DNA of 12,462 nucleotides from an uncultured Gemmatimonadota bacterium (lineage in GTDB: Bacteria; SM23-81; DAOVCL01), in contig CAZVGK010000055.1 in NCBI GenBank assembly GCA_964626665.1, forward strand, positions 1 through 12,462. Direction: 5' to 3'. Below, piece by piece: positions 256 through 12,462 of the stretch; the stretch's first letter is position 1, and the number at the start of each line of letters is the position of its first letter. Made by a program: the position numbers and the translations under genes. The notes beneath the pieces were generated by a model. That model had not been told where the DNA came from and searched no databases. It saw nothing but the letters and a program-made list of their open reading frames with translations.

Positions 256-1245
256 TTGGAGGTGGACCATTCGTCTGGGGAGAGGATAGCGGTCAATTCC
301 TCTGGAAAGTTTGTGGCCTATGAAAAACTACTAAGCCCAGTTTCTGCCCGAGATGAGAACGGAGATGAACACTTAAAGAAGATTACCCTCCAAGACGGCT
401 TATCCTTCAGGGGGTTGGAGGGAGACAGGTTGGCGCTTGACTTTGGCCGGTTTCAGCTCCAGGATACCGCCTTGCTGGTTGTCGGGGGACAGCTCAACAA
501 GGATCCTGGTAAGTCAAAGAGACCGCAGGACAAATATCCGGTTATAAGGGTTGCCGGAGCAGGGAAGGGGGAGGGAGAGTATGTGGTTAGTTACCGACAG
601 AACTACTATGTAGAGCTCTTGGAGTTGCCCAAATCCCTCTTCACCGGTAGGGAGTCTAAGTTGACCCTTCATTGGCAACTGCCCTATAATCTGGATTTTG
701 CGGGATTAGTGGATGAGAAAGAAAGAAATCTGACTGTTGAAACCCGATATACTAAATTGACAAAAGCGGTTCATTCTACTCAAGAGGATGTCATAAACCT
801 GCTTCAAACTAAAGATGGGAGATATGCTGAGCTTCTTCCTGGGGAGGCGGTAGATCTATGCTTTACCTCTGTGAATCAGACAGGCGGTTGCGAGAGGAAC
901 TTAGTTTTGGTCTCCACCGGGTACTATGTGGAGGAGAGCAAGAGCAAGACAGGCGAAGGCAACTCCAGTGAGGAGATACCGAATGTTTTTTCATTACTGC
1001 CGAACTATCCCAACCCCTTCAATCCGATGACAGAGATCAGATACACCTTGCCAAAGGAGTGTTTGATTAGGCTGGAAGTTTTCGATATCTTGGGTCGGAG
1101 GGTAGCGACATTGGTGGATGGATTCCAGAGGGCTGGTTACAAGAGCATCCGTTGGGATGGAGACGGAATGGCCAGTGGGATATACTTCTATCGGCTTAAG
1201 GCAGGAGATTACACAAAGGTAAGGAAGATGGTGTTAATCAGATGA
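256..1245 (+). CDS. Secreted-type protein with C-terminal T9SS type A / FlgD-Ig-like sorting domain; probably 5'-truncated
   Basis: C-terminal ~90 aa (FSLLPNYPNPFNPMTEIRYTLP...LEVFDILGRRVATLVDG...SIRWDG...ASGIYFYRLKAG...RKMVLIR) is a typical secretion-system C-terminal sorting domain. The frame is open upstream to nt 58 with no ATG and no signal peptide, so the TTG start at 256 is doubtful. Confidence 0.8.
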   Translation: MEVDHSSGERIAVNSSGKFVAYEKLLSPVSARDENGDEHLKKITLQDGLSFRGLEGDRLALDFGRFQLQDTALLVVGGQLNKDPGKSKRPQDKYPVIRVAGAGKGEGEYVVSYRQNYYVELLELPKSLFTGRESKLTLHWQLPYNLDFAGLVDEKERNLTVETRYTKLTKAVHSTQEDVINLLQTKDGRYAELLPGEAVDLCFTSVNQTGGCERNLVLVSTGYYVEESKSKTGEGNSSEEIPNVFSLLPNYPNPFNPMTEIRYTLPKECLIRLEVFDILGRRVATLVDGFQRAGYKSIRWDGDGMASGIYFYRLKAGDYTKVRKMVLIR

Positions 1246-1325: not shown

Positions 1326-1368
1326 TAGTGTAAATCAGTGCCGAAAAAAGGGGGTGAAGTTTTTGACT

Positions 1369-2391
1369 ATGGACTATAAGAAAGCCGGGGTGGATATCGA
1401 GGCGGCCCAGAGGTCGTTGGAACGGGTAAAGAGGATGGTCAGCTCCACCTGGAGCCCGGGGGTCATCTCCAACCTCCGCCAGTTTGCCGGTCTTTACCGG
1501 CTGAATGGAGGGGGGTATAAGAATCCGGTGCTGGTCTCCAGCACTGATGGGGTGGGCACCAAGCTGAAGATAGCTTTTATGCTGGGGAGACATTCCACCG
1601 TGGGCCAGGACCTCGTCCATCACTGTGCAAATGACATCTTAGTCCATGGGGCCAAACCGCTGTTTTTTATGGACTATCTGGCCTCCTCCGAGATCAAGTC
1701 GGGGGTTATTCAGGAAGTAATAGGAGGTTTGGTCAAGGGATGTAAAGAGGTGGGTTGTTCCCTGATCGGGGGGGAGACGGCCCAGCTTCCCGGCTTCTAC
1801 CAACCGGGTGAGTATGATCTGGCCGGGTTTATCCTTGGTCTGGTAGAAAGGGAGGGGATAGTTGACGGCTCCGGGATAGAGGCTGGTGACCTGATAGTAG
1901 GCTTGGCCTCCAATGGCCTGCACACCAATGGCTTCTCCCTGGTCAGGAAGATTCTCCTCAAGGATTGGAAGCTTGATGGTTACATCGATGACCTGGGTTC
2001 TACCCTGGGAGATGAACTCCTGCGGGTGCATCGCCACTATGGGCAGATTATCTATAGCCTGAGTTCCTTGGGGTTTAGGATCAAGGGGATGGCCCACATT
2101 ACCGGAGGAGGGATAGAGGGGAACCTAAGCAGAATAATCCCTTCCGGTCTGGTGGCTCTGATCAAGAAGGGGAGTTGGGAAGTTCCCCCCATATTTAAGC
2201 TGATAAAGAAGGTGGGTGGGGTAGAGGAGAGAGAGATGTTCCGGGTGTTCAATATGGGGATAGGTTTTATCCTGGTAGTTTCCCCAGCCATTTTGGACAA
2301 GGTTCTCTTCCACTTAAAAGGCCAGGGCCAGATCGCTTGGCAGGTGGGGGAAATAAGAGAGGGAGATTTGAAGAGGGTCATACTTGAATGA
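1369..2391 (+). CDS. purM: Phosphoribosylformylglycinamidine cyclo-ligase (AIR synthetase)
   Basis: Motifs YKKAGVDI, STDGVGTKLKIA, DYLA, LIGGETA, YDLAGF, SNGLHTNGFSLVRK, AHITGGG, FNMGIG. ATG 1369 matches the usual N-terminus; GTG 1354 and TTG 1363 are alternatives. Confidence 0.97.
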   Translation: MDYKKAGVDIEAAQRSLERVKRMVSSTWSPGVISNLRQFAGLYRLNGGGYKNPVLVSSTDGVGTKLKIAFMLGRHSTVGQDLVHHCANDILVHGAKPLFFMDYLASSEIKSGVIQEVIGGLVKGCKEVGCSLIGGETAQLPGFYQPGEYDLAGFILGLVEREGIVDGSGIEAGDLIVGLASNGLHTNGFSLVRKILLKDWKLDGYIDDLGSTLGDELLRVHRHYGQIIYSLSSLGFRIKGMAHITGGGIEGNLSRIIPSGLVALIKKGSWEVPPIFKLIKKVGGVEEREMFRVFNMGIGFILVVSPAILDKVLFHLKGQGQIAWQVGEIREGDLKRVILE

Positions 2392-3776
2392 AGAGGGTTG
2401 TGGTCATAGAGGAAGGAAAGAGATTGTCCCAGCAGTTGGGTGAAGACTATCAGGTTCTGCATTTCTCCTCCTGGGAGGACTCCAGGGAGGCAGAAAAGAT
2501 AGATCTCATCCTCCTTGATCCCTTGGCCTGTCACCCAGGGTTAAAGGAGGCGATCCGGGGTTCCCTCCAGGTCCACCCCCAGGTCCCGCTGATTGTCGTT
2601 TCCGAGAAAGTTTCCACCTCCCTGGCCATAGAGGCAATGAGGGAAGGAGCATACGATTATCTGACCCTTTCCTCTTCTCCCTTATCCCTGAAAGAGGTTG
2701 TAGGGGAGGCTCTGAAGCCTGAGAGAAGGGGAAAGGTAGTCAGGTTGCCCAAGCTTGAGCCCGCGGGTGAGGAACCTCTCATTGGGGAGAGTCCGGAGAT
2801 GTTGGAGATATATAAGCTCATTGGACAGATAGCCCCCAGCGATGTCTCTATTCTCATTCAGGGAGAGAGTGGAACGGGGAAAGAGCTCGTGGCCAGGGCT
2901 GTCCACAACAACAGTTCGCGGAGAAAGGGCCCTTTTCTGGCCGTAAACTGTGCCTCCATCCCGGAGACCCTGTTGGAAAGCGAGCTGTTTGGCTATGAGA
3001 AGGGGGCCTTCACCGGCGCAACGGAGAGAAGGGCGGGAAAGCTGGAGCAGTGTGATGGGGGGAGCATATTCTTAGATGAAATTGCCGATATGTCCCCCGC
3101 AATTCAGAGCAAGGTCTTGCGGGTCTTAGAGGGCCGCGAGTTCTACCGGTTGGGGGGGAATAAGGGGATAAAGGTAAATGTGCGGGTGATTACCGCTACC
3201 AACAAGAGCTTGGTGAAGTGTGTTAAGGAAGGGACCTTTCGGGTGGACCTCTTCTATCGATTGAAAATGGCTGCCATCTACCTACCTTCCCTCCGCGAGA
3301 GGGGGGGGGATATTCCTCTCTTGGCCCACTATTTCCTGAAGAAGTTCTCCTCCCAGTTCCATCGACAGATAAGGGGTATCTCCCCCCAGGCTATGGAGAC
3401 GCTTAAGGATTACCCCTGGCCGGGAAATGTGCGGGAGTTGGAGAACAATCTGCAGACCGCGGTGATCTTGGCCAAGGGGGATGTTCTTCTACCGGAATAC
3501 TTTCCCATCAATCAGGAGGAGGGGGGGACCGTCTCTGGCCCCGAGTTTGAGGATAGCTATACCAAGCTGTTCTCCGAGCTGATCACCCCCCTCTGGGACG
3601 AGCTGCGCGGAGGACATCAGGGGAGGATCTATGATGAACTGACCGGCTCCTTAGAGAAGGCCTTGATCAGCCTTACCCTGAAGAGGTTGAAGAGCAATCA
3701 AGTCAAGGCGGCGAAACTGTTGGGGTTAAGCCGGAATACCTTGCGGGATCGTATAAAAAAACACGGGCTTTACTAA
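2388..3776 (+). CDS. Sigma-54-dependent transcriptional activator (NtrC family: atypical receiver + AAA+ + Fis HTH)
   Basis: Walker A GESGTGKE, ESELFG, intact GAFTGA, Walker B IFLDEI, FRVDLFYRL, WPGNVREL, C-terminal NQVKAAKLLGLSRNTL HTH; N-terminal receiver-like region (DLILLD, AMREGAYDYL). ATGA overlap with purM. Confidence 0.95.
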   Translation: MKRVVVIEEGKRLSQQLGEDYQVLHFSSWEDSREAEKIDLILLDPLACHPGLKEAIRGSLQVHPQVPLIVVSEKVSTSLAIEAMREGAYDYLTLSSSPLSLKEVVGEALKPERRGKVVRLPKLEPAGEEPLIGESPEMLEIYKLIGQIAPSDVSILIQGESGTGKELVARAVHNNSSRRKGPFLAVNCASIPETLLESELFGYEKGAFTGATERRAGKLEQCDGGSIFLDEIADMSPAIQSKVLRVLEGREFYRLGGNKGIKVNVRVITATNKSLVKCVKEGTFRVDLFYRLKMAAIYLPSLRERGGDIPLLAHYFLKKFSSQFHRQIRGISPQAMETLKDYPWPGNVRELENNLQTAVILAKGDVLLPEYFPINQEEGGTVSGPEFEDSYTKLFSELITPLWDELRGGHQGRIYDELTGSLEKALISLTLKRLKSNQVKAAKLLGLSRNTLRDRIKKHGLY

Positions 3777-3851
3777 GTGCTCTATTTCATAATTACGGTG
3801 AGTATTTGAGAAGATGGCAAGGTTAACGATGTAAATGGTAGCCGTGAGTTA

Positions 3852-3978
3852 AAATCCGAAGCACGAAATCCGAAATACGAAACAATACCAAATTGACCCC
3901 GTTAGATACGAAGTTATCTAATGGGGTGAACCAAAATTCAAATGTGCAAAACAAGTCCTGTTTCGGTCATTTGGATTT
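3852..3978. repeat. Heptamer-repeat element (AAATCCG AAGCACG AAATCCG AAATACG AAACAAT ... TTTCGGTCATTTGGATTT)
   Basis: 7-nt periodicity at 3852-3886 and a partly complementary distal arm at 3961-3978. Confidence 0.7.
3896..3927. repeat. Palindromic element ACCCCGTTAGATA-cgaagt-TATCTAATGGGGT
   Basis: 13-bp stem with a single G-T pair and a 6-nt loop, inside the heptamer element. Confidence 0.8.
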
Positions 3979-4087
3979 ACTTAACCCTAAGTCATCTAAA
4001 AGGTATGTAGGTTGACTGTCTCCAATCATACGTGACAGAACTTATGGAATGGACCACTAAGGAATTTAAGGATGAGAGGAGGCAATT

Positions 4088-4516
4088 ATGCAGTATAAAA
4101 AAGTGGATAATCGGCAGTGGGTGGTGGTATTGAGGAGGGGGGAGAGGATCATAGAGAAGCTGACTGACTTTATAGAAGAGGAAGGCATCCAATCCGGGTA
4201 TTTCAATGCCATTGGCGCGGTCAGTGCCGTGGAGTTGGGACACTATAACCTGGGGAAGGGAGAATACACCACCAAGCAGATCGATTCCCCATTGGAGATC
4301 GTTAGCCTGATGGGCAATGTGAGCACCAAGGGGGAGGAGAAGGTTATCCACGGCCATATCGTCGTGGGGACAGATGAGATGCAGCTCTTCGGCGGCCATC
4401 TCAAGGAGGCCACCGTGGCCGCCACCTGTGAGGTAATGTTTAAGGAGTTTCAAAAGAAGGTAGATAGGAAGTATGACGACGATATAAAGTTGCACCTACT
4501 TGCCCCGGAGGGATAA
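4088..4516 (+). CDS. PPC-domain (DUF296) protein
   Basis: Motifs LRRGE.I, AIGAVS, EIVSLMGN, HGHIVVG, GGHL, TCEV; strong SD GGAGG upstream; stop directly abuts the next start. Confidence 0.92.
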   Translation: MQYKKVDNRQWVVVLRRGERIIEKLTDFIEEEGIQSGYFNAIGAVSAVELGHYNLGKGEYTTKQIDSPLEIVSLMGNVSTKGEEKVIHGHIVVGTDEMQLFGGHLKEATVAATCEVMFKEFQKKVDRKYDDDIKLHLLAPEG

Positions 4517-5983
4517 GTGGATAAGGAGAGGGTGCTGGAGAATACCATCAAGAGGTGTCGGGAAAGGGATATAATCATTCCTACCTATGAGGAGATGAGG
4601 CACCCGGAAAAGATCCCCCAGGGCATCAAGGAGGAGCTCAGGAAGATAGGTCTCTGGGACCTCCATCCCCGGAATCTCTTCAGGATTACCTGGAAGAATG
4701 AGCCGGTGAAGTTTGGGGGAGATTTCGGCAATGTAAATTACCTGGAGATACCACCCGAACTTTCCGGGGTGGAGGCCAGGATAATTATCCTCATCGGGAA
4801 ATGGTTTCCCACCGGTTCCCATAAGGTCGGGGCTACCTTTGGCCCTTTGGTGGAGAAGCTGGTCAGAGGGGCATTTGATCCCACTCGGCAAAAGACCCTT
4901 TGGCCCTCTACCGGAAACTACTGTCGGGGTGGGGCTTATGATGCACATCTTTTGGCTTGCCCCTCCATAGCAGTCCTCCCTGAGGGGATGTCCCAGGAGA
5001 GATTTGACTGGTTGAAGAAAGTTGGCTCTGAGATCTATGCCACCCCTGGGGTGGAATCAAATGTGAGGGAGGTCTATGAGAAGAGCGATGAGTTAAAGAG
5101 GGAGAGGGGTAAGGAGATCGTCGTTCTCAACCAGTTTGAGGAGATAGGGAATGCTATCTGGCATTATGTCTGCACTGGCCAGGCAATAGAGGAGGTTTTC
5201 GCAAGGGAGAAGAAGCCCAATCAGAGGATTGCCGCCCTTTTCCTTACCCAGGGTTCTGCCGGAACCTTAGGTTCTGCCGATTACCTAAGGGAGAGGTATC
5301 CAGCCATAAAGGTCTGTGCTGGGGAGGCTTTGCAATGCCCCACCCTCCTCTTTACCGGATATGGGGGACACAGAATCGAGGGGATCGGTGATAAGCACGT
5401 CCCCTGGATATTCAATGTGAAAAATATGGATATGGTTGTAGATATAGATGATAACTGCTGTATGAGGTTAATGAGGCTTTTCAATGAGGTCAAGGGGAAA
5501 GCATATCTAAAGAAGGAGGAAGTTGACCCCGAGATCGTGGATAGGCTTGACCTTTTAGGTATATCCTCCATTGCCAATTTATTGGGCTCCGCAAAGGTGG
5601 CCAAATACTTTGAGCTAAATGAGAGGGATATTATATTCACCATAGCCACCGATTCTATGGAACTTTACCAGTCCAGGCTCAAGGAGGCCAGGGAGTCAGA
5701 TGGGGAGTATACAGAATATGATGCGGCGCGGGACTTCGAGGCCTGTTTAACAAATATAGGAATAGACTGGATGTTGGAGCTCTCCTATTGGGATAAGAAG
5801 AGGATGCATAACCTCAAGTATTTCACCTGGGTAGAGCAACGGGGGAAGGATGTAGAAGAATTGGACCGGCAGTGGTATGATGATGACTATTGGAAGGAGA
5901 GGTTTCAGTCTTACCAGGAATGGGATAGGCTGATTAGGGAGTTTAACGAGAGGACCGGTCTATTGCAGAGGTACAGGAGGTAG
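4517..5983 (+). CDS. Fold-type II PLP-dependent enzyme (cysteine synthase / Trp synthase beta superfamily), large subfamily of unknown substrate
   Basis: PTGSHKVG (Schiff-base Lys), STGN loop, LNQF, Gly-rich GSAGT phosphate loop, CysK-like HRIEGIG; 488 aa with N- and C-terminal extensions. Confidence 0.88.
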   Translation: MDKERVLENTIKRCRERDIIIPTYEEMRHPEKIPQGIKEELRKIGLWDLHPRNLFRITWKNEPVKFGGDFGNVNYLEIPPELSGVEARIIILIGKWFPTGSHKVGATFGPLVEKLVRGAFDPTRQKTLWPSTGNYCRGGAYDAHLLACPSIAVLPEGMSQERFDWLKKVGSEIYATPGVESNVREVYEKSDELKRERGKEIVVLNQFEEIGNAIWHYVCTGQAIEEVFAREKKPNQRIAALFLTQGSAGTLGSADYLRERYPAIKVCAGEALQCPTLLFTGYGGHRIEGIGDKHVPWIFNVKNMDMVVDIDDNCCMRLMRLFNEVKGKAYLKKEEVDPEIVDRLDLLGISSIANLLGSAKVAKYFELNERDIIFTIATDSMELYQSRLKEARESDGEYTEYDAARDFEACLTNIGIDWMLELSYWDKKRMHNLKYFTWVEQRGKDVEELDRQWYDDDYWKERFQSYQEWDRLIREFNERTGLLQRYRR

Positions 5984-5985
5984 AA

Positions 5986-7065
5986 ATGAAGGCGGAGAGC
6001 TTTAGGGGTAGGGATTGGATCGATGCGGAGCTCGACTTCTTCAAGGAGGAGTGGGAGACCCTAATCGATGTGGCCCTTGATCTGAAAAGGAGGTTTCTTT
6101 TGGGGGAGGACCACACGCACATCCTGAGGAACAAGACCCTTTATATGATGTTCTTTAACCAATCGCTGCGCACCAGGAGCACATTTGAGGTGGGGATTCA
6201 GCAGTTGGGGGGATTTGCCTGCAATTTGGAGCCAGGGAAAACCTATACCCCAGCCAGGAAGGGGTTTGAGGTTCCCTATAAGACGGAGAGGATCTGCGAT
6301 GTCGCCCAGGTCCTGGATCGGACAGGCGATGCCCTGGCCATCCGCATGTATGGGGAGCCTGCCCACTGGATCTATGGGTTTGCCAATCAAACGATGAAGG
6401 AGTTTGCCGAGTATATGCGCATACCGGTCATCAATATGGAGTGTGACAAGTTCCATCCCACCCAGGCACTGGCCGATATGATCACCATCAAGGAGAAGTT
6501 TGAGGGCTTTAAAGGGTTGAAATTCGTAATGAGCTGGGCATATTCAGGATCAACCCACAAGCCATTGGCCGTTCCCCAAAGCCTTGTTTTAGCGCCGACA
6601 AAGTTGGGGATGGATGTAGTCTTAGCTCGCCCAAAGGGCCTTGAACTTGATCCAGAGGTAATTAAAAAATGTAAGGAATTTGCCCAGCAGAACGGAACCT
6701 CCTTTGAGGAGACGGATTCAATGGAGGAGGCCTTTCAGGATGCGGACATCGTCTATCCAAAGAGCTGGGGTTCCTTAGATTATATGGCAGCCTGGGATGA
6801 GGCCAGCGGGAAGAAGACAAAGGAGGCGGACCTTGCCGGTATGAAGGAGGTCTTTGAGAGGAACAAGGATTGGATCTGCGACCAGGGGAAGCTCTCCCTC
6901 ATCAAGCCAAGCGGGATTTATATGCATTGCCTCCCCGCTGATCGGGGGATGGAGGTTACAGACGAGGTCATCGATGGCCCCCACTCTGTTGTCTTCGATG
7001 AGGCGGAAAATAGACTTCATGCCCACAAGGCAATTATGGCCTTGTTAATGGGAGGGAGGATGTAG
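5986..7065 (+). CDS. Carbamoyltransferase, YgeW-like / N-acetylornithine-carbamoyltransferase-like
   Basis: SLRT, HPTQ, HCLPADRG, EAENRLH; SWAYSGSTHKPLAVPQS and DADIVYPKSW resemble YgeW motifs; no OTCase GDxxNN or DxxxSMG motifs. Confidence 0.9.
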   Translation: MKAESFRGRDWIDAELDFFKEEWETLIDVALDLKRRFLLGEDHTHILRNKTLYMMFFNQSLRTRSTFEVGIQQLGGFACNLEPGKTYTPARKGFEVPYKTERICDVAQVLDRTGDALAIRMYGEPAHWIYGFANQTMKEFAEYMRIPVINMECDKFHPTQALADMITIKEKFEGFKGLKFVMSWAYSGSTHKPLAVPQSLVLAPTKLGMDVVLARPKGLELDPEVIKKCKEFAQQNGTSFEETDSMEEAFQDADIVYPKSWGSLDYMAAWDEASGKKTKEADLAGMKEVFERNKDWICDQGKLSLIKPSGIYMHCLPADRGMEVTDEVIDGPHSVVFDEAENRLHAHKAIMALLMGGRM

Positions 7066-7074
7066 TTTGCTCTC

Positions 7075-7140
7075 TTTAGACAGGAGACAGGATTGACAGG
7101 ATAAATAAAAATTCTGTAAATCCTGTTATCCCGTCCGAAA
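7075..7140. repeat. ACAGGAT-type imperfect palindromic element, copy 1
   Basis: GACAGGATTGACAGGAT ... AATCCTGTTATCCCGTC arms; 21-nt and 17-nt exact reverse-complement matches to 11517-11583. Confidence 0.85.
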
Positions 7141-7153
7141 GTTTTAAAATCGA

Positions 7154-7206
7154 GGTGGCAGAACCCCGATTCTGCCACCAACCACCGTCAGGTGTGGGCA
7201 TCTGAC
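7154..7206. repeat. Tandem REP-like hairpins (GGTGGCAGAA/TTCTGCCACC and GTCAGGTG/CATCTGAC)
   Basis: Perfect 10-bp stem at 7154-7179; 8-bp stem with one G-T pair at 7187-7206. Confidence 0.65.
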
Positions 7207-7305
7207 CGCTCACGCTAAGTTTCCATTTTCCACATTTTTAATTCTCAATTCTTAATTGCTTTTTTCCGTGAATTTCCTTGGTGAAAAAATTCAGAGGGAG
7301 GGTTG

Positions 7306-8325
7306 ATGGGGAGATCAGAGCTTTTCGGCAAGGACCTGATCTGCAGTCAGGAATGGTCTCAGGATGAATTGATTAAGGTTTTGGAGCTTGCCGAGGAAAT
7401 GAAGCAGAACAGGTTTAATTACCGACCACTTCTCAAGAACAGGACATTTTTTATGTTCTTTTACAATCCCTCTGTGCGGACAAGGCAATCCTTTGAGTGT
7501 GCGCTCACCGAGTTGGGAGGGCATGCCCAGTTCTTGGAGCCGCAGGCTATGAGGCTAAAGACTCCAACCATCGCCGGGGAGACGGTAGAGGATGCGGCAA
7601 AGGTAATGTCCAGATATGCCTGTGGAATTGGGATAAGGATTTTGGAGGATAAGGTGAGCAGATATGGGGAAGGGGATGAGCTGATCAGGGAATATGTCCG
7701 CTGGGCAGATGTGCCGGTTATCTCTATGGCCCATGACAAGTTCCACCCCTGTCAGGGTCTGGCCGATGTGATGGGTTTAAGAAAACACTTGGGGAAAAAT
7801 CTCAGGGGCAAAAAGCTCCTTTTGACCTGGGGGCACGGTGCTTTGGCTCGCTCCTGGTCTTCGGTCCAGGAAAACCTCCTCATCTCCTCTCGTTTCGGTA
7901 TGGACATAACCCTGGCCTATCCGGAAGGGTATAACCTTGATCCCCAGGTGGTAGAGATGACCCGGGGGAATTGTCAGGCCAATGGGAGTAGGTTCGAGTT
8001 TACCCATAGCCCGCTTGCGGGTTATCAAAGGGCAGATGTCGTCTATTCCAGAAACTGGATGAGCCCTAATGCCTATAAGGGCGGTAGGTTTCACAAGGAA
8101 GAGGAGATAAAGAGGGCAATGGCACACAGAGAATGGGTGTGTGACTCCGAAAAGATGAAACTAACCAACAACGCCCTTTTCATCCATCCTATGCCAGTTG
8201 ATAGGGGCCATGAGGTCACCGATGAAGTCGCCTCCGGAGAGAGATCGATAATATACGAGATCGCTGAGGACAGGCTGCATATCCAAAAGGCGGTTCTGGC
8301 CCTCCTGGCCAGCGATCTCTGGTAA
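7306..8325 (+). CDS. Second divergent carbamoyltransferase (ATCase/OTCase superfamily), substrate unknown
   Basis: SVRT, HPCQ, HPMPVDRG, AEDRLHIQKA; acceptor loop TWGHGALARSWSSVQE and VYSRNW differ from OTCase, ATCase and the first paralogue. SD GGAGG upstream; TTG 7303 is an alternative start. Confidence 0.9.
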   Translation: MGRSELFGKDLICSQEWSQDELIKVLELAEEMKQNRFNYRPLLKNRTFFMFFYNPSVRTRQSFECALTELGGHAQFLEPQAMRLKTPTIAGETVEDAAKVMSRYACGIGIRILEDKVSRYGEGDELIREYVRWADVPVISMAHDKFHPCQGLADVMGLRKHLGKNLRGKKLLLTWGHGALARSWSSVQENLLISSRFGMDITLAYPEGYNLDPQVVEMTRGNCQANGSRFEFTHSPLAGYQRADVVYSRNWMSPNAYKGGRFHKEEEIKRAMAHREWVCDSEKMKLTNNALFIHPMPVDRGHEVTDEVASGERSIIYEIAEDRLHIQKAVLALLASDLW

Positions 8326-8335
8326 AGGGGGATGA

Positions 8336-9274
8336 ATGGCTAAGGTCGCTGTAGTGGCTATTGGGGGGAATTCCTTAATCAAGGACAGGGAACACCAGAC
8401 AGTTAAGGATCAGTATGAGGCCATTGAGGAGACCTCCCACCACATTGCCAAATTGGTTGAGATGGGATACGAAACGGTAATTATCCATGGTAACGGCCCC
8501 CAGGTGGGTTTTATCCTCCTCAGATCTGAGTTGGCCAAGCGGAAGATTCATCCGGTGCCCATAGACTCCGCTGATGCGGACACCCAGGGGGCAATAGGCT
8601 ACAATATCCAGATGGCCTTAGGAAATGAGTTCAAATTTAGGGGTATAGAGAAGGGGGTGGTCACGGTAGTCACCCAGATTGTGGTGGACAAGGATGATCC
8701 GGCGTTTGCCAACCCTACAAAGCCCATTGGTCCGTTTTACAACAGGGAAGAAGCGGAGAAGGGGAGGGGTGAATATGGGTGGAGCATAATAGAGGATGCC
8801 GGAAGGGGTTATCGCCGGGTAGTCCCCTCGCCCATTCCTAAAAGGATTGTGGAACTGGATGCCATAAAGGCATTGATCAAAGGGGGATTTGTTGTGGTGG
8901 CTGCGGGTGGGGGGGGGATTCCCGTAATGGAGGATAAGGGCAAGTTAATTGGGGTAGAGGCGGTTATAGACAAGGATTATGCTTCATCGCTTTTAGCCAG
9001 GAGGATAAAGGCCGAGCTTTTTCTCATCTCCACTTCCGTGGAGAAGGTCTATCTCAATTTTAATGCCCCTGACCAGAAGCCAATTGATTTAATGAGGGTG
9101 GGGGAGGCGGAGGAATACCTCTCTCAGGGACATTTTGCTGAGGGAAGTATGGCTCCCAAGATTAAGGCAGCCATCTCCTTCTTAAAGGGCGGCGGCCAGG
9201 AGGCGATAATCACCACCCCGGAGAGGATAGAGGAGGCCATCAAAGGGGTGACGGGGACAAAGATCGTGCCTTAG
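8336..9274 (+). CDS. arcC: Carbamate kinase
   Basis: VAIGGN, HGNGPQVG, TQGAIGY, PTKPIGPF, EDAGRGYRRVVPSP, VEAVIDKD, GSMAPK. Confidence 0.97.
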   Translation: MAKVAVVAIGGNSLIKDREHQTVKDQYEAIEETSHHIAKLVEMGYETVIIHGNGPQVGFILLRSELAKRKIHPVPIDSADADTQGAIGYNIQMALGNEFKFRGIEKGVVTVVTQIVVDKDDPAFANPTKPIGPFYNREEAEKGRGEYGWSIIEDAGRGYRRVVPSPIPKRIVELDAIKALIKGGFVVVAAGGGGIPVMEDKGKLIGVEAVIDKDYASSLLARRIKAELFLISTSVEKVYLNFNAPDQKPIDLMRVGEAEEYLSQGHFAEGSMAPKIKAAISFLKGGGQEAIITTPERIEEAIKGVTGTKIVP

Positions 9275-9307
9275 CAGTTTGGACGCAGAAGGAATACAAA
9301 GAGATAA

Positions 9308-9414
9308 AAAGCACGAAAGGGCGAAAAGCGGAAAATGGAGAAAATTAAAAAGCGGAAAGACGAAAGCCACTAGCTGGCCGCTGAAAGCTGAGTGCTGACG
9401 GCTGAAAACTGACT
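9308..9414 (+). repeat. Degenerate octamer array followed by GCTGANN heptamer array
   Basis: AAAGCACG AAAGGGCG AAAAGCGG AAAATGGA GAAAATTA AAAAGCGG (9308-9355); GCTGGCC GCTGAAA GCTGAGT GCTGACG GCTGAAA ACTGACT (9373-9414). Confidence 0.8.
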
Positions 9415-9460
9415 GGTCACCACGGATAACCACGGAACAACATAGTCCGGAGAAGTAATT

Positions 9461-9497
9461 CTCCCTCCCCTTGCGGGAGGGAGTTAGAGGGAGGGGG
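9461..9497. repeat. C/G-rich REP-like palindrome (CTCCCTCCC-cttgc-GGGAGGGAG ttaGAGGGAGGGGG)
   Basis: Perfect 9-bp stem plus G-rich tail; related units at 12102-12194. Confidence 0.8.
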
Positions 9498-9589
9498 ATT
9501 CACCACGGGCTACCACGGAAAAAGATTTTTTGTGCTGTCAGGGCTCCTGCCCTGACAGTAGAGAAAATCCGTGCGATTCCGTGGTGAAT
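9498..9589. repeat. CACCACGG-type palindromic element containing REP-like hairpin copy 2 (9531-9558)
   Basis: Terminal ATTCACCACGG / CCGTGGTGAAT perfect 11-bp inverted repeat, inner CACGGA/TCCGTG; half copies at 9418-9437 and 7263-7286. Confidence 0.8.
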
Positions 9590-9659
9590 TGTTGCAGATA
9601 GTTTCTCTAAATCCTAAGAATCTCCATTCAATAGGGTTCCTCCAAAGGGGGCTAAGCTT

Positions 9660-11027
9660 ATGGATCTGGTAATTAAAAATGGGACCTTGGTTACGCCAGG
9701 CCAAACACTCCAGAGGGATATAGGCATTGAGGGTGGCAAGATAGTAAAGGTCGCTCAGACCATCCCCGCGGGAGCGAGATCAATAGATGCCTCTAATAAA
9801 TTGATTTTGCCGGGAATTATCGATGCCCATACCCATATGGAAACCCCGGTAAAAGGGGTTACTTCTTCAGATGACTTCTCCACAGGCACCAGGGCCGCAA
9901 CAGCCGGTGGGGTGACAACTATTATCGACTTCACCATCCAGGCCCGAGGTCAGTCCTTAAGGGAAGCCATCGAGGCAAGAAGAAAGCAAGCAGATGGAAG
10001 GGTCTACATAGATTATGCCCTTCACTGTAACCTAACGGATTTTCAGGTCAATTACCTTGAGGAGATACCAGAGATAATTGCCTCAGGCATCCCTAGCTTC
10101 AAAGTCTTTATGGCTTACAGAAATGAAGGGATTATGGTCAGCAATGAGGATCTGAAGATGCTGTTGGAAGCCACCGCAAAATATGGCGGCATTGTCCAGA
10201 TCCATGCGGAGAGCGGTTTTCTCCTCGATTATTTGGTGGAGGAGGCCTCTCAAAAGGGCAATACTTCTCCAGTATTTCATGCTAAGACCAGACCCAACTA
10301 TGTGGAGGAGGAGGCAGTGGTTAGGGCCATCTCCCTGGCAGGGGAGGCAGGGGGTAGTTTATATCTCGTGCATCTATCGACCAAGGAGTCTGTGGATGCA
10401 GTTAGATGGGGTAAAAAGAGGGGTGTTAAACTGTTTGCCGAGACCTGTCCCCAGTATCTTGTTTTGGATAAAGCCCTATACGAAGGGAGTGATGGAAGAT
10501 ATTATATCACCAGCCCTCCTCTACGGGGTGCCAAGGATAGGGAGGCCCTTTGGCAGGGGATAAAAGAGGGGATAATAGGAGTTGTAGGTACAGACCACTG
10601 TCCCTTTGCGCGGACCCAGAAAGATAGTGGGAAGGATATATTCTTTAAGACACCAAACGGCCTTCCTGGGGTCGAGACCCTCCTTCCCATTATGTATTCT
10701 GAAGGGGTGGTGAAAAGGGGGCTATCACCAAATCTACTTGTGGAGCTTTTGGCCTACAATCCTGCCAGGATCTTTGGATTATATCCGCGCAAGGGAGCAA
10801 TTGAAGAGGGCAGCGATGCAGATCTGGTGATTTTTAATCCGGAAAGAGAGCTCAAGATACAGGCTAATGAACTACATATGAACACCGACTTCTCCCCCTA
10901 TGAGGGCCTAACCATCAAGGGTGTTCCGGAGATAACCATATCAAGGGGGGAAATCATCTATGAACGAGGTAACTTCCCCGCCAGCCCAGGAAGGGGTAAG
11001 TTCATCCCAGCTACCCCGACTCATTGA
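9660..11027 (+). CDS. hydA: Dihydropyrimidinase / D-hydantoinase (cyclic amidohydrolase)
   Basis: PGIIDAHTH, GGVTTIIDF, FKVFMAY (carboxylated Lys), IHAES, VHLST, ETCPQYL, SPPLR, TDHCPF, PNGLPGVE, GSDADLVIF. Confidence 0.93.
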   Translation: MDLVIKNGTLVTPGQTLQRDIGIEGGKIVKVAQTIPAGARSIDASNKLILPGIIDAHTHMETPVKGVTSSDDFSTGTRAATAGGVTTIIDFTIQARGQSLREAIEARRKQADGRVYIDYALHCNLTDFQVNYLEEIPEIIASGIPSFKVFMAYRNEGIMVSNEDLKMLLEATAKYGGIVQIHAESGFLLDYLVEEASQKGNTSPVFHAKTRPNYVEEEAVVRAISLAGEAGGSLYLVHLSTKESVDAVRWGKKRGVKLFAETCPQYLVLDKALYEGSDGRYYITSPPLRGAKDREALWQGIKEGIIGVVGTDHCPFARTQKDSGKDIFFKTPNGLPGVETLLPIMYSEGVVKRGLSPNLLVELLAYNPARIFGLYPRKGAIEEGSDADLVIFNPERELKIQANELHMNTDFSPYEGLTIKGVPEITISRGEIIYERGNFPASPGRGKFIPATPTH

Positions 11028-11140
11028 GGATGTTGTTGAATTGGTTGAATTATCCCTCCGTTATCTGCTTGATCGCCTTTATGGGCATAGCCCGTCATTA
11101 ATGACCGACCAGGATCTGATTATCAAGCCCACAAAGTTTA

Positions 11141-11163
11141 GGTCGCATAAATGCGACCCCTAC
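11141..11163 (-). repeat. GTAG-type REP (GTAGG-GGTCGCAT-tt-ATGCGACC)
   Basis: On the minus strand, GTAG tetranucleotide followed by a perfect 8-bp palindrome, 114 nt after the hydA stop. Confidence 0.75.
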
Positions 11164-11516
11164 ATATTGCCCAGGCTCTTCCTGCAAAACTTGCGAAATT
11201 CAGACTAATGGATTGTCTTCCTAATTTGGGTTCAGCTTTCCCTGTCAGATTATTCAACCCAGTCAAGAATATCCACCAAAAATTATCGAAATCAATAGGT
11301 ACATAACCGGAATTCAGCTCTACCATGTGCTTAACGCCGCACGCTTTCAGCCGGCGGTTGTTTTGATGTAAATATAATTCTCATCCCAACTTATGTCGCC
11401 CACATTATCGTTTGCATTACTGCTATCGATGGGTGTGTAGCTGATCCGTAAGCGCAGTTGGTCTCGTCCAAATACCTACGTTGCCGTTTTTGAACTTAAT
11501 GCCCTTCGGGCGGACT

Positions 11517-11583
11517 TTTCTGACAGGATAACAGGATTTACATGATTTTTTTTATCCCGTTTATCCTGTCAATCCTGTCTAAA
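11517..11583. repeat. ACAGGAT-type imperfect palindromic element, copy 2 (inverted relative to 7075-7140)
   Basis: 11560-11580 is the reverse complement of 7085-7105; 11526-11542 is the reverse complement of 7115-7131. Confidence 0.85.
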
Positions 11584-11640
11584 AATGGCGGTTTGACCTT
11601 ATTATTGCTTTAATAATTCGAAAGCACAGGAAATTCCTTT

Positions 11641-11712
11641 TTTGGACGCAGATGAACGCAGTTTGTCAGAATTTTAACTTTCTGCGGTTATCGGCGAAAA
11701 TCTGCGGCCTAA
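11641..11712. repeat. GGACGCAGAT-type imperfect palindromic element
   Basis: TTGGACGCAGATGAACGCAG ... CTGCGGTTATCGGCGAAAATCTGCGGCCTAA; fragments at 9278-9289 (TTTGGACGCAGA, exact) and 12205-12235 (right arm). Confidence 0.7.
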
Positions 11713-11878
11713 TTAGTGTCTGTCCGGAATTCCGGTTTTGAGGGAGATGTCATTGCGAGGAGTGAGGAATGAACGACGAAGCAATCCCTTTATTTCCAGG
11801 AGATTGCTTCGCTCCTTTGGGTCGCTCGCAATGACGGAAATATTTCAATTTTGGTAGTTTTCGGACAGACACTAATTA
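11710..11878. mobile_element. MITE-like element with an internal RPE-like palindrome
   Basis: Perfect 17-bp terminal inverted repeat TAATTAGTGTCTGTCCG / CGGACAGACACTAATTA; internal stems GTCATTGCGAG/CTCGCAATGAC (11749-11759, 11825-11835) and CGAAGCAATC/GATTGCTTCG (11777-11786, 11802-11811); no transposase. Confidence 0.75.
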
Positions 11879-12033
11879 TACCAGGGGGAGGGTCTACCTA
11901 ATTTAACTTATTCATAAATCCTCGAGGGCTTTATGTAAGCTCCTGTCACCTTGAAAGCATAGGAATTCCCATTTTTTCTCTTTGACTATCAAAGAGTTAC
12001 AAGAGGGCTTAGGGTTACTGGGCCAAAATTCCC

Positions 12034-12086
12034 GCTGCCGCAGACTTTAGTTTGCGCTATATCGCCACCTACGAGAGAACAACTAC
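12034..12086 (+). repeat. Degenerate REP doublet
   Basis: GCTGC-CGCAGAC-ttta-GTTTGCG hairpin, followed by a decayed partner ending in CTAC. Confidence 0.4.
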
Positions 12087-12101
12087 CGTTGTAATATATA
12101 G

Positions 12102-12194
12102 TTCCCTCTCCCTTAGAGAAAGAGGGACAGAGTGAGGGGGGAATAGACAAAGTCTTCACCCTCTCCTTAGTCCTCCCCCATCAAGGGGGAGGAA
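12102..12194. repeat. Inverted doublet of C/G-rich REP-like palindromes
   Basis: TCCCTCT...AGAGGGA cagaGTGAGGGGG, spacer, then CACCCTCTCCttag TCCTCCCCC-atcaa-GGGGGAGGA; same family as 9461-9497. Confidence 0.75.
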
Positions 12195-12251
12195 AGAATT
12201 TAGGAATCCCGTTTATCTGCATTTACCTGCGTCCCATATAGCTCGCTCGCC

Positions 12252-12368
12252 CGGTAATTTCACAAATTACACCTCTATTTCCATGGCGCCGAGTTCTTTG
12301 GCAGATACAGTAACTTCTTCGTCCAATACTGAGAGACATCCCCTTATCGCGTCCTTAATGTTCTCTAT
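12252..12368 (-). pseudogene. hicB: hicB antitoxin C-terminal remnant plus the possible first codons of hicA
   Basis: Minus strand 12368-12267 reads IENIKDAIRGCLSVLDEEVTVSAKELGAMEIEV*, matching the HicB 'EA(L/I)ENIKDAI' helix. It is preceded by an in-frame TGA and followed by SD GAGGTG and GTG-K-L-P, a typical HicA start. Confidence 0.7.
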
Positions 12369-12462
12369 TCAGGGATTCCACCTTCTGGAAATAAATTAAA
12401 CATTGAGAATGCTAAGATGGTGGCTTCTCTACCTCTATTGTTATCTTTTGATTTGTGGGTGT

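Follow-up and report, generated by a model that had tools for sequence, protein, structure and literature searches.

The window analysed here is the whole 12,462-nt stretch of DNA, in which the ORF list places six plus-strand genes between positions 4088 and 11027 (Table 1). Consecutive genes are separated by 0, 2, 237, 10 and 385 nt; the preliminary description, which had reported six co-oriented genes at these positions with gaps of 0, 2 and 10 nt among them, was exact in this respect. Both long spacers and the non-coding tail (11028–12462) consist of short repeats dispersed through the genome – genome-wide blastn gave 291 matches for the repeats of the first spacer, 66 for those of the second and 266 for the tail – and are not missed genes. 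An Rfam scan of the first spacer gave no match. The true start of the second transcarbamylase (TC2) is probably the ATG at 7306.

Table 1. Position and principal evidence for each feature of the window.
Feature	Coordinates	Strand	Evidence
Sigma-54-dependent activator, 462 aa	2388..3776	+	PF00158, 232 bits
PCC/DUF296 protein, 142 aa	4088..4516	+	PF03479, 106.3 bits (cut-off 25)
PLP-488, fold-type-II PLP enzyme, 488 aa	4517..5983	+	PF00291 (PALP fold), 55.9 bits (cut-off 35)
TC1, transcarbamylase	5986..7065	+	both OTCase domains
Intergenic spacer	7066..7302		dispersed short repeats, stem-loop 7154-7179
TC2, transcarbamylase	7303..8325	+	both OTCase domains
Carbamate kinase (CK)	8336..9274	+	TIGR00746, 391.6 bits (cut-off 358.25)
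Intergenic spacer	9275..9659		dispersed repeats and stem-loops
D-hydantoinase/dihydropyrimidinase, HyuA-like	9660..11027	+	TIGR02033, 496 bits (cut-off 393)

The carbamate kinase shares 46% of its residues with E. coli YqeA and is the only one in the genome (tblastn matches contig C55 alone). The hydantoinase, assigned by a model (TIGR02033) that does not separate dihydropyrimidinase from D-hydantoinase activity, has 39% identity with E. coli HyuA and 50% with the enzyme heading an XDH-PreT-PreA-SsnA-CysK-like-TC1-TC2 operon in a sister family (locus L109).

The ORF of the sigma-54 activator overlaps purM by 4 nt. Over its AAA+/HTH part the protein shows 44% identity with E. coli YgeV, whose gene lies immediately upstream of ygeW; such identity is usual for any sigma-54-type activator. 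A search upstream of position 4088 found no sigma-54 promoter, the best candidate agreeing at 7 of 11 specified bases, and in L007, the nearest relative, the regulator is not kept at this place. Its link to the operon is weak, and a regulatory role is no more than possible. Ahead of the PLP gene, a PCC/DUF296 gene was otherwise found only in L007 (protein identity 65%) and on metagenome contig L115 (73%), and in none of the other 79 loci of a PLP-488-centred sample (the best 80 of 302 relatives); it is a genus-specific addition.

The two transcarbamylases

Both TC1 and TC2 retain intact carbamoyl-phosphate motifs (SxRTR and HPxQ), and neither protein passes any curated NCBIfam cut-off. For each, the best model is that of N-acetylornithine carbamoyltransferase (NF003384), against which TC1 scores 257 and TC2 245 bits (cut-off 288); the corresponding scores are 238 and 198 bits for OTCase (TIGR00658; cut-off 281) and 165 and 116 bits for YgeW (TIGR03316; cut-off 500). 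The closest solved relatives are AOTCase (180–190 bits) and YgeW (124–152 bits). Phylogenetic analysis places YgeW, TC1 and TC2 in three separate clades: support is 100/100 for the YgeW clade, outside which both transcarbamylases fall, 100/100 for the TC2 clade (six rows) and 88/96 for the TC1 clade (six rows), while the base of the tree is not resolved (67/88). The sub-cut-off scores and the tree placement rule out either protein as a YgeW orthologue. The locus is thus not one of YgeW with an extra transcarbamylase, as had been suggested; the pair would instead replace both YgeW and YgeY.

TC1 is 34% identical to YgeW and shares with the E. coli protein the motifs SWAYS..KP.(A/S)VPQ(S/G), YPKSW and HCLPAD; it also bears an insertion that follows its first helix-strand region. 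The motifs of TC2 are YSRNW and HPMPVD, the HPMP of the latter corresponding to HCLP in OTC, YgeW and TC1, and to HPGP in the genome's own ATCase-like gene. We propose TC1, with its YgeW-like second-substrate region, as the functional counterpart of YgeW, and TC2 as a replacement for the hydrolase YgeY.

The scores also raise a biosynthetic reading, according to which the transcarbamylases are (acetyl)ornithine carbamoyltransferases that serve arginine synthesis, the PLP enzymes act as cysteine and threonine synthases, and the clustering has no catabolic meaning. Both proteins do find their best matches in NCBIfam and PDB among N-acetylornithine and ornithine carbamoyltransferases, and public sources name their relatives likewise; against this, every curated cut-off lies above both scores, and both genes are tightly coupled to those for carbamate kinase and hydantoinase. 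The SMG motif (DxxxSMG), which binds ornithine in OTCase, is absent from TC1 and TC2, and it is present, together with HCLP, in a separate ArgF-like gene on contig C38. We regard a biosynthetic role as highly improbable.

Purine genes in the genome, the phylum and beyond

The genome is 99.65% complete, and in none of its genes do the YgeW, YgeY or YgeX models exceed their cut-offs. The best YgeY match reaches 32.8 bits (cut-off 321); the best match to YgeX/DpaL is a ThrC-like gene (64.4 bits against 276), and PLP-488 reaches 18.4 bits in this genome-wide search. The lack of an M20 hydrolase and of DpaL, noted previously for the window, therefore extends by profile search to the whole genome, in which arginine deiminase (arcA) was not found either. 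Outside the window, contig C3 carries SsnA (C3:108228-109538; 541.8 bits against 444), an adjoining PreA-like gene (NF006183, 453 bits against 335), a PreT/GltD-like gene nearby, and the ThrC-like gene, which overlaps the end of ssnA. The same contig carries XdhC, MocA, adenine deaminase and two XDH-type sets, one of which shares 39% identity with E. coli XdhD across 786 aa; for both sets all NCBIfam XDH models are below cut-off. Full-length YgfK is absent from the genome, where its GltD-like part alone finds a match.

Six of seven genomes of the phylum contain the TC1-TC2 pair, and SsnA exceeds its cut-off in the same six; YgeY and YgeX do so in none of the seven. Gene order is the same in the closest relative (L007). 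That the order recurs there, and the pair in six of seven genomes, indicates that the arrangement is more than chance. The sister family groups such genes on a single strand of each of two contigs: hydantoinase, XDH, PreT, PreA, SsnA, CysK-like, TC1 and TC2 on L109; SsnA, CysK-like, TC1, TC2, CK, ThrC-like, a 2Fe2S gene and MocA on L108, which thus extends the order by CK and the ThrC-like gene. The module thus goes with ssnA, xdh and reductase genes, as had been anticipated – on C3 in this genome, within the same operon in the sister family.

These neighbours bear on a pyrimidine (or mixed) use of the module, an alternative already raised in the preliminary description. If the hydantoinase is a dihydropyrimidinase, an activity that its model also covers, and follows the PreA/PreT-like reductase, then one or both transcarbamylases would phosphorolyse N-carbamoyl-beta-alanine or beta-ureidoisobutyrate in an ATP-conserving reductive pyrimidine pathway, which might operate together with purine use. 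The PreA-like and PreT/GltD-like genes are present, the YgeY model finds no M20 carbamoylase-like gene, and panD lies beside TC2-CK-ThrC-like in L180–L184, all of which agree with such a role. However, in the sister family the hydantoinase and PreA/PreT share their operon with SsnA and XDH, and the C. difficile PydA homologue UacX works in purine degradation (Li et al. 2025, PMC12507026). In addition, TC2 tracks SsnA and excludes YgeY (see below), the window holds no beta-alanine aminotransferase, and a literature search turned up no relevant account of a pathway of this kind. We do not favour pyrimidine breakdown and consider it unlikely.

If TC2 stands in for YgeY in purine degradation, then the two are expected to be complementary. 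A survey of 121 Cloacimonadota genomes (101 SsnA-positive, 20 SsnA-negative; the genomes compared are related, and counts overstate independence) gave, among those with SsnA, YgeY only in 82, TC2 only in 16, both in 1 and neither in 2: TC2 and YgeY are close to mutually exclusive. The SsnA-negative genomes mostly have neither (17 of 20), and TC2 is found in 2. Two of the 19 TC2-positive genomes also possess YgeY, alongside a third type of transcarbamylase. Neither YgeY nor YgeX is over cut-off in any of five other two-TC genomes, and none of five YgeY-type genomes has a TC2 orthologue (best match 34–39% identical). The predicted anti-correlation of the second transcarbamylase with ygeY is seen among SsnA-positive Cloacimonadota. 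Within the best 80 of 302 PLP-488 loci, neighbours comprise YgfK (54), ThrC-like (54), Se-XDH (47), SsnA-like (25) and YgeY (7); all five two-TC loci have CK and lack YgeY, whereas all seven YgeY loci have exactly one adjoining transcarbamylase and lack CK.

A different picture emerges from 79 metagenome loci centred on TC2 (the window's own contig, L114, left out). CK lies directly 3' of TC2 in 40 of 54 testable loci and TC1 ahead of it in 19 of 50, while purine markers occur within 9 kb in only 1 of the 30 loci of at least 10 kb (tblastn; Pfam adds L188): TC2-CK is frequently found by itself, and in many cases TC1 is missing. Its neighbours include oligopeptide ABC transporters and penicillin amidase, and the family of TC2 is a large one, with 1592 clusters at E<=1e-60. 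Accordingly, TC2-CK, either alone or accompanied by TC1 and the ThrC-like enzyme, could be a self-standing module that ferments some other imported ureido compound (a citrulline-like molecule or an N-carbamoyl amino acid, for instance), and its proximity to purine genes in a few phyla would then be secondary. The complementarity in SsnA-positive Cloacimonadota, set beside the 2 of 20 SsnA-negative genomes with TC2, argues otherwise, as does the embedding of TC2 in SsnA operons of at least three lineages (the sister family; Cloacimonadota L025, L051 and L076; and L079). The absence of the OTCase SMG motif from the transcarbamylases and of arginine deiminase from the genome also counts against it. 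To this second alternative, too, we assign a low probability.

The PLP enzymes

PLP-488 is under every cut-off in an NCBIfam family scan (cysK 91 against 351, cysKM 93 against 344, DpaL 17.7 against 276 bits). Its AF2 model has a mean pLDDT of 94.5, and the top Foldseek matches are CBS/OASS cores (target-normalised TM 0.79–0.88, identity 21–28%), which leave approximately 70 N-terminal and 100 C-terminal residues uncovered: the predicted structure is that of a CysK/CBS-like core with N- and C-terminal helical extensions. K103, an STGN loop and a GSAGT loop are conserved in the alignment, in which K103 aligns to the PLP lysine, STGN is Asn-loop-like and a glycine-rich phosphate loop is evident. 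PLP-488 resembles CysK/CysM by fold and candidate lysine, and is not a member by score.

The protein is approximately 75% identical across phyla and, in most Bacteroidota loci among the best 80 of 302 relatives, is encoded immediately 3' of YgfK. It was found in 97 of 101 SsnA-positive and 5 of 20 SsnA-negative Cloacimonadota genomes, and the ThrC-like gene in 99 and 6, respectively – a pattern unlike that of a housekeeping gene. The ThrC-like protein passes the NCBI threonine synthase cut-off and is the sole threonine synthase match in this genome and in five of five others tested; the sister family lacks PLP-488 (2/7 genomes of the phylum) and has in its place an ordinary-length CysK-like gene, whose protein passes the cysK/cysKM cut-offs. 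These passing scores accord with the biosynthetic reading, and the distribution with respect to SsnA opposes it.

The 488-aa enzyme had been seen as a simple substitute for DpaL. Yet PLP-488 co-occurs with YgeX in all 14 YgeX-positive Cloacimonadota genomes, is also found in peptide-degradation contexts without purine genes, and is absent from the sister family, which together argue that it is not simply a DAP lyase. We regard it as a candidate for beta-elimination or beta-replacement on the C3 amino-acid backbone. The ThrC-like enzyme is just as closely tied to SsnA.

Proposed pathway and known systems

We think it fairly likely that the six genes are the lower branch of a variant of the anaerobic reductive urate (2,8-dioxopurine) pathway, with TC1 and TC2 in place of YgeW and YgeY. 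We infer substrates, an assignment of each transcarbamylase to a ureido group, an order of cleavage, an ATP yield and a division of labour between the PLP enzymes as follows. The upper branch on C3 (two XDH-type Mo enzymes, PreA/PreT-like reductases and SsnA) would deliver ureidomethyl-hydantoin, which the hydantoinase would open to 2,3-diureidopropionate. TC1, with its YgeW-like pocket, would phosphorolyse one ureido group; TC2, in YgeY's place, would cleave the other, probably the alpha-N-carbamoyl. Each cleavage would yield one carbamoyl phosphate, from both of which the single CK would make ATP, and 2,3-diaminopropionate would be converted to pyruvate and ammonia by the non-DpaL PLP enzymes, PLP-488 and the ThrC-like protein. 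If true, both urea-like side groups, rather than one, may be harvested for ATP, giving 2 ATP per urate, where the version of E. coli and Clostridium gives 1; the doubling of ATP from this segment suggested earlier would then follow. Of the ureide/purine variant first described, the association with purine genes and the absence of ygeY stand; YgeW plus an extra transcarbamylase, and the PLP enzyme as a simple DpaL substitute, do not.

In the characterized pathway, for which Li et al. use SsnA as the marker, HyuA yields 2,3-diureidopropionate; one ureido group is then removed by YgeW through phosphorolysis and the second by YgeY through hydrolysis, after which DAP is deaminated by YgeX (Li et al. 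2025, PMC12507026); YgeW and YqeA together give ATP (Liu et al. 2025, bioRxiv 10.1101/2025.04.24.650524). The E. coli set (ygeW-ygeX-ygeY-hyuA-yqeA and mocA-ygfK-ssnA-ygfM-xdhD) has the hydantoinase and CK in common with the window, an upstream sigma-54 activator (ygeV), and SsnA, together with XdhD, for which there is a candidate XdhD-like enzyme here, both encoded elsewhere in the genome; ATP from an OTCase-fold transcarbamylase and CK is likewise predicted here. It differs in having YgeW, YgeY and YgeX where this genome has two transcarbamylases of separate clades, fused YgfK where there are PreA/PreT-like genes, and DpaL where there are PLP-488 and the ThrC-like enzyme; unlike in E. coli, the two branches are encoded on separate contigs.

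Among individual proteins, the transcarbamylases retain the carbamoyl-phosphate motifs of Xanthomonas AOTCase (PDB 3kzc and related entries) and YgeW (PDB 3q98), yet do not reach the cut-offs for AOTCase (288), OTCase and YgeW (500), TC2 having HPMP in place of HCLP, and TC1 its insertion. PLP-488 has the fold-type-II core of the CysK/CBS proteins (e.g. PDB 2q3d, 6c2h, 8srt), from which its low identity, its extensions and its tie to a catabolic purine cluster set it apart. ArcA-ArcB-ArcC follows the same logic, in which a transcarbamylase phosphorolyses a ureido group and CK makes ATP from the carbamoyl phosphate, an analogy drawn by Liu et al. 2025 (bioRxiv 10.1101/2025.04.24.650524), although here there is no arginine deiminase and the transcarbamylases lack the SMG motif.

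C. difficile, as here, has a PydA/PreA-type reductase instead of YgfK. There UacY, a D-aminoacylase-like hydrolase, replaces YgeW and YqeA (Li et al. 2025, PMC12507026): hydrolysis takes the place of phosphorolysis, and hence no ATP is made at this stage. Of the two reactions, phosphorolysis is thermodynamically the less favourable (Li et al. 2025, PMC12507026), a point that counts against the variant proposed here. The steps that cleave ureido groups are thus evolutionarily interchangeable, and the variant in the window appears to have made the opposite exchange, of hydrolysis for phosphorolysis.

The operon and its genomic setting

The window occupies an entire contig (C55) of a genome of 3.17 Mb in 63 contigs, with a completeness of 99.65%. 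According to the preliminary description it contains six co-oriented genes, several of them tightly coupled: the ORF listing matches exactly, and the successive gaps of 0, 2, 237, 10 and 385 nt include the three short ones (0, 2 and 10 nt) that had been named.

Features of the window (contig C55) and the ThrC-like gene of contig C3; scores are given against model cut-offs
Feature	Positions	Strand	Assignment
T9SS-sorted protein (first ORF)	256-1245		upstream of operon; T9SS C-terminal sorting domain
purM and sigma-54 activator gene	1354-3776		upstream of operon; 4-nt overlap at 2388-2391
Repeats before operon	3777-4087		13 blastn hits
PCC/DUF296 protein	4088-4516	+	Pfam/NCBIfam
PLP-488, fold-type-II PLP enzyme, 488 aa	4517-5983	+	under all curated cut-offs (Pfam/NCBIfam)
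TC1, transcarbamylase of OTCase fold	5986-7065	+	N-acetylornithine carbamoyltransferase model best, 257 bits vs 288; YgeW model 165 vs 500
First long spacer (repeats)	7066-7302		291 blastn hits
TC2, transcarbamylase of OTCase fold	7303-8325	+	N-acetylornithine carbamoyltransferase model best, 245 bits vs 288; YgeW model 116 vs 500
CK, carbamate kinase	8336-9274	+	NCBIfam 391.6 vs 358
Second long spacer (repeats)	9275-9659		66 blastn hits
D-hydantoinase/dihydropyrimidinase	9660-11027	+	NCBIfam 496 vs 393
Non-coding tail, 1.4 kb (repeats)	11028-12462		266 blastn hits; longest ORF at most 82 aa
ThrC-like PLP gene on C3	106999-108240	-	338 vs 303 for PRK08197; overlaps ssnA end

The two long spacers, the tail and the region before the operon are made up of short repeats that recur throughout the genome, several of the intergenic ones bearing stem-loops. 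Missed genes in the long spacers or tail are thereby ruled out, and repeats common to contig ends probably explain the fragmentation of the assembly. A search for sigma-54 promoters (TGGCAC-N5-TTGCW) found none upstream of 4088; the entire window gave two matches where 4.0 were expected, and the top match in intergenic regions had just 7 of 11 bases. Sigma-54 control of the operon is not claimed. Promoter and terminator scans of the window stayed at chance level, and Rfam returned two sub-threshold chance matches in the window and none in the spacers. Directly upstream of the purine-catabolic operon lie a gene of purine biosynthesis (purM) and a regulator gene. The sorting domain of the first ORF has tblastn matches at well over 100 genome sites, so the organism has a very large repertoire of T9SS cargo.

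A genome search located further genes on the minus strand of a second contig, C3, at about 107-132 kb: MocA, XdhC, two XDH-type sets (one 39% identical to E. coli XdhD across 786 aa), adenine deaminase, a PreT/GltD-like gene, a PreA-like gene (453 bits against a cut-off of 335), SsnA (542 against 444) and a ThrC-like gene. Nothing in the genome exceeded the cut-offs for YgeW, YgeX (best 64 bits against 276, from the ThrC-like gene) or YgeY (best 33 against 321); arginine deiminase was not found, and the operon CK is the sole carbamate kinase found by tblastn. Thus the reductive urate pathway is represented by its upper half, and all three canonical enzymes acting after HyuA, the kinase excepted, are missing. 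Directly downstream of the ssnA/ThrC-like pair (G000:C3:102190-108240, L082) are gcvH, gcvPA, gcvPB and an NrdG-type radical-SAM activase.

The transcarbamylases and the PLP enzyme

All 24 clustered transcarbamylases, E. coli YgeW, and the ArgF-like and PyrB-like genes of the genome were placed in a maximum-likelihood tree (27 rows). One clade (12 rows, support 100/100) holds E. coli YgeW and every single transcarbamylase of Bacteroidota; TC1 (6 rows, 88/96) and TC2 (6 rows, 100/100) form clades each separate from it, and the notion of YgeW plus one added transcarbamylase is therefore abandoned. The base of the tree is poorly supported (67/88), and the transcarbamylase of locus L053 is a long branch without placement. 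A sister relationship of TC1 to YgeW finds no support at this base, functional likeness being drawn from shared motifs only.

The presumed catalytic roles of transcarbamylase motifs form the basis of functional assignment here. All sequences keep SxRTR and HPxQ. TC1 and YgeW have SWAYS..KP.(A/S)VPQ(S/G), YPKSW and HCLPAD in common, so that TC1, we infer from sequence, would be the working counterpart of YgeW. TC2 carries YSRNW and HPMPVD; in the genome's ATCase-like gene the motif reads HPGP, and in its ArgF-like gene HCLP, accompanied by SMG. The likeness of HPMP to HPGP suggests that TC2 may act, like ATCase, on an alpha-amino nitrogen. Among solved relatives, AOTCase and archaeal OTCase stand nearest to both TC1 and TC2, and YgeW comes next. 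A third type of transcarbamylase (327-330 aa, 41-43% identical to TC1) adjoins YgeY in L111 (G133:C292), L113 (G100:C162) and L053, with a HALP motif in the last; on a single contig of G133 the order is YgeY - x - third type - TC1 - TC2.

Across phyla PLP-488 keeps about 75% identity, and its family is compact: among 50%-identity representatives, only a few relatives at 30-59% identity are full-length. The AF2 model (mean pLDDT 94.5) best matches, by Foldseek, the cores of CBS and O-acetylserine sulfhydrylase (target-normalised TM 0.79-0.88, 21-28% identity), leaving the first ~70 and the last ~100 residues outside the matches; K103 aligns with the PLP lysine, and conservation extends to the STGN and GSAGT loops. 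An ESM Atlas search returned just unnamed 'PLP-dependent enzyme' clusters. Fold and motifs make beta-elimination or beta-replacement the likely chemistry, with a beta-substituted alanine as substrate. Diaminopropionate and albizziin are such alanines, and the chances that PLP-488 works on diaminopropionate or a mono-ureido form appear evenly balanced.

Gene neighbourhoods and co-occurrence

The statements on gene identity, absence, synteny and co-occurrence in this section are direct observations. PLP-488 was searched for in species-representative genomes, the best 80 of 302 relatives were taken, and their neighbouring ORFs were clustered and annotated by cluster representatives. Among these 80 loci, YgfK occurs at 54 (889 against a cut-off of 835), a ThrC-like PLP protein at 54 (183 against 167, TIGR00260), Se-dependent XDH at 47 (915 against 830), an SsnA-like protein at 25 (score under the cut-off), hydantoinase at 15 (by ORF cluster, no profile score) and YgeY at 7 (528 against 321); genes of MocA, XdhC, FAD and 2Fe2S type are likewise found. 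The usual order in Bacteroidota is MocA / YgfK - PLP-488 - ThrC-like - XDH - SsnA - x - HyuA / YgeW - YgeY. Within the same best 80 of 302, five loci (L007, L025, L051, L076, L079) have two adjacent transcarbamylases followed by CK, none with YgeY, and each of the seven YgeY loci has exactly one transcarbamylase alongside and lacks CK. Two similar loci differ at this point: YgeY and one transcarbamylase in L053 stand where L079 has two transcarbamylases and CK.

PLP-488 is also seen without purine genes nearby, at L002, L006, L064, L018, L060, L080 and L010. At L002 and L006 it lies among a TonB-type receptor, an Amidohydro_3 (D-aminoacylase-like) protein, an S9 peptidase, a beta-lactamase-fold protein and an M14 peptidase; it adjoins a prolyl oligopeptidase at L064 and a histidine-ammonia-lyase-type gene at L010, and a tricorn-type protease is among the neighbours at these non-purine loci. 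Such neighbourhoods hint at a broader amino-acid substrate.

Seven genomes of the window's own phylum were sampled. The TC1-TC2 pair is present in 6/7, SsnA exceeds its cut-off in the identical six, YgeY and YgeX do so in 0/7, and PLP-488 is found in two, both of the window's genus. Two loci of a sister family have the orders HYD - XDH - PreT-like - PreA-like - SsnA - short CysK-like PLP - TC1 - TC2 (L109) and SsnA - CysK-like - TC1 - TC2 - CK - ThrC-like - 2Fe2S - x - MocA (L108). These operons tie the transcarbamylase pair and CK physically to SsnA, and by gene order a CysK-type enzyme (cysKM 367 against 344; 29% identical to PLP-488) occupies the slot of PLP-488. The module is very probably part of the SsnA pathway.

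An even sample of Cloacimonadota (121 genomes) was scored with thresholds of E<=1e-85 for TC2 orthologues and E<=1e-80 for SsnA-like proteins, and by cut-off for YgeY and YgeX. TC2 was present in 19, YgeY in 85, SsnA-like in 101, YgeX in 14, PLP-488 in 102 and ThrC-like in 105. The anti-correlation of TC2 with ygeY that the preliminary description had raised is borne out: the 101 SsnA-positive genomes comprise 82 with YgeY only, 16 with TC2 only, one with both (G100) and two with neither, counts that are not independent events since the genomes are related to each other. In one of the latter two, G128, YgeY is a fragment truncated by the end of its contig. The 20 SsnA-negative genomes comprise one with YgeY only, one with TC2 only, one with both (G133) and 17 with neither. 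Both genomes with the two features carry YgeY and a third-type transcarbamylase module on top of TC1-TC2. Elsewhere, none of five other two-TC genomes has YgeY or YgeX over the cut-off, and five of five YgeY-type genomes lack a TC2 orthologue (closest match 34-39% identical). That TC2 replaces YgeY is, overall, more likely than not.

PLP-488 (97/101 SsnA-positive against 5/20 SsnA-negative Cloacimonadota) and the ThrC-like protein (99/101 against 6/20) follow SsnA. Five Bacteroidota genomes with PLP-488 all lack YgeX. The claim that a new PLP enzyme simply replaces DpaL fails as stated: PLP-488, like the ThrC-like protein, is present in all 14 YgeX-positive Cloacimonadota genomes. In many genomes of this phylum the ThrC-like match contains one in-frame stop (TGA, TAG or TAA) near its ends, probably where the match reaches into the next ORF.

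Metagenome contigs were scanned for TC2, and the best 80 of 407 relatives were analyzed, the window's own contig (L114) being excluded from counts. Within these, CK directly follows TC2 at 40/54 testable loci, TC1 (at least 50% identity) directly precedes it at 19/50 (a weaker transcarbamylase at 3 more), a ThrC-like gene occurs at 12/39, and purine markers were detected by tblastn at one (L118) of 30 loci of at least 10 kb. A further purine context, evident by Pfam and below the tblastn thresholds, is found at L188:5430-12007 (Mo-dehydrogenase FAD subunit - TC1 - TC2 - CK - adenine deaminase). The remaining neighbours are heterogeneous (oligopeptide ABC transporters, penicillin amidase, panD). 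These results count against the purine reading: TC2-CK is often physically alone, and what ties it to purine breakdown is operon structure in a few lineages together with genome-level co-occurrence. At L180-L184, panD (aspartate decarboxylase) and DUF456 lie directly upstream of TC2 - CK - ThrC-like, and TC1 is absent.

A proposed two-transcarbamylase variant and the known pathway

The reductive urate pathway was elucidated only in 2025, in gut Bacillota and E. coli. As set out in the main text of Li et al. (2025, PMC12507026), 2,3-diureidopropionate arises when HyuA opens the ring of ureidomethyl-hydantoin; one of its ureido groups is taken off by YgeW using phosphate, the other is hydrolysed by YgeY, and YgeX converts diaminopropionate to pyruvate. 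According to the main text of Liu et al. (2025, bioRxiv 10.1101/2025.04.24.650524), YgeW together with YqeA produces ATP. Which ureido group is cleaved first is described as disputed by Percudani (PMC12990295).

We lean towards reading the operon as a two-transcarbamylase variant of this pathway. The operon hydantoinase would open the ring, TC1 and TC2 would each cleave one ureido group phosphorolytically, CK would form 2 ATP, and PLP-488 with the ThrC-like enzyme would dispose of the C3 amino acid. We infer the substrates and ATP yield from the genes. Counted as evidence against is that the ThrC-like protein alone exceeds the thrC cut-off, both here and in 5/5 further genomes that were tested. 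More tentatively, and with the odds somewhat unfavorable, the variant may represent a widespread, unrecognised purine fermentation of uncultured FCB-group and candidate phyla, in which two transcarbamylases of new subfamilies phosphorolyse both ureido groups for 2 ATP per urate, and CysK-like PLP-488 and the ThrC-like enzyme serve for DpaL. TC2 would then be an alpha-N-carbamoyl-amino-acid transcarbamylase in place of the M20 hydrolase, and one possible C3 route would be beta-replacement to serine, then dehydration.

The main texts of Li et al. and Liu et al. make no mention of Cloacimonadota, Bacteroidota, small candidate phyla, two-carbamoyl, cysteine synthase or paralog, nor does that of Li et al. 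mention threonine synthase. When the literature was searched for pyrimidine breakdown by transcarbamylase, or for a urate variant with two transcarbamylases, nothing relevant emerged, judged by title and abstract for the ssnA/ygfK work listed; for diureidopropionate and albizziin, the matches listed concern the known pathway, apart from one review, and for a gene paper on the Rabinowitz pathway only the Liu et al. preprint was returned.

The predicted doubling of ATP matters for how purine fermenters gain energy in anoxic sediments and digesters, and each transcarbamylase, expected to be specific for one ureido group, would offer a clean handle on the disputed order of cleavage. Three large families, publicly named ornithine/N-acetylornithine carbamoyltransferase, cysteine synthase or generic PLP-dependent enzyme, gain a testable role. 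The available text of Haft and Self (2008) gives canonical neighbours only, and the variants described in the main text of Li et al. are YgeW or UacY and YgfK or UacX only; against these the two-transcarbamylase form appears new. Conserved in at least three phyla, with genes generically annotated in public sources, it would bring Cloacimonadota, Bacteroidota and small candidate phyla within the reach of the pathway.
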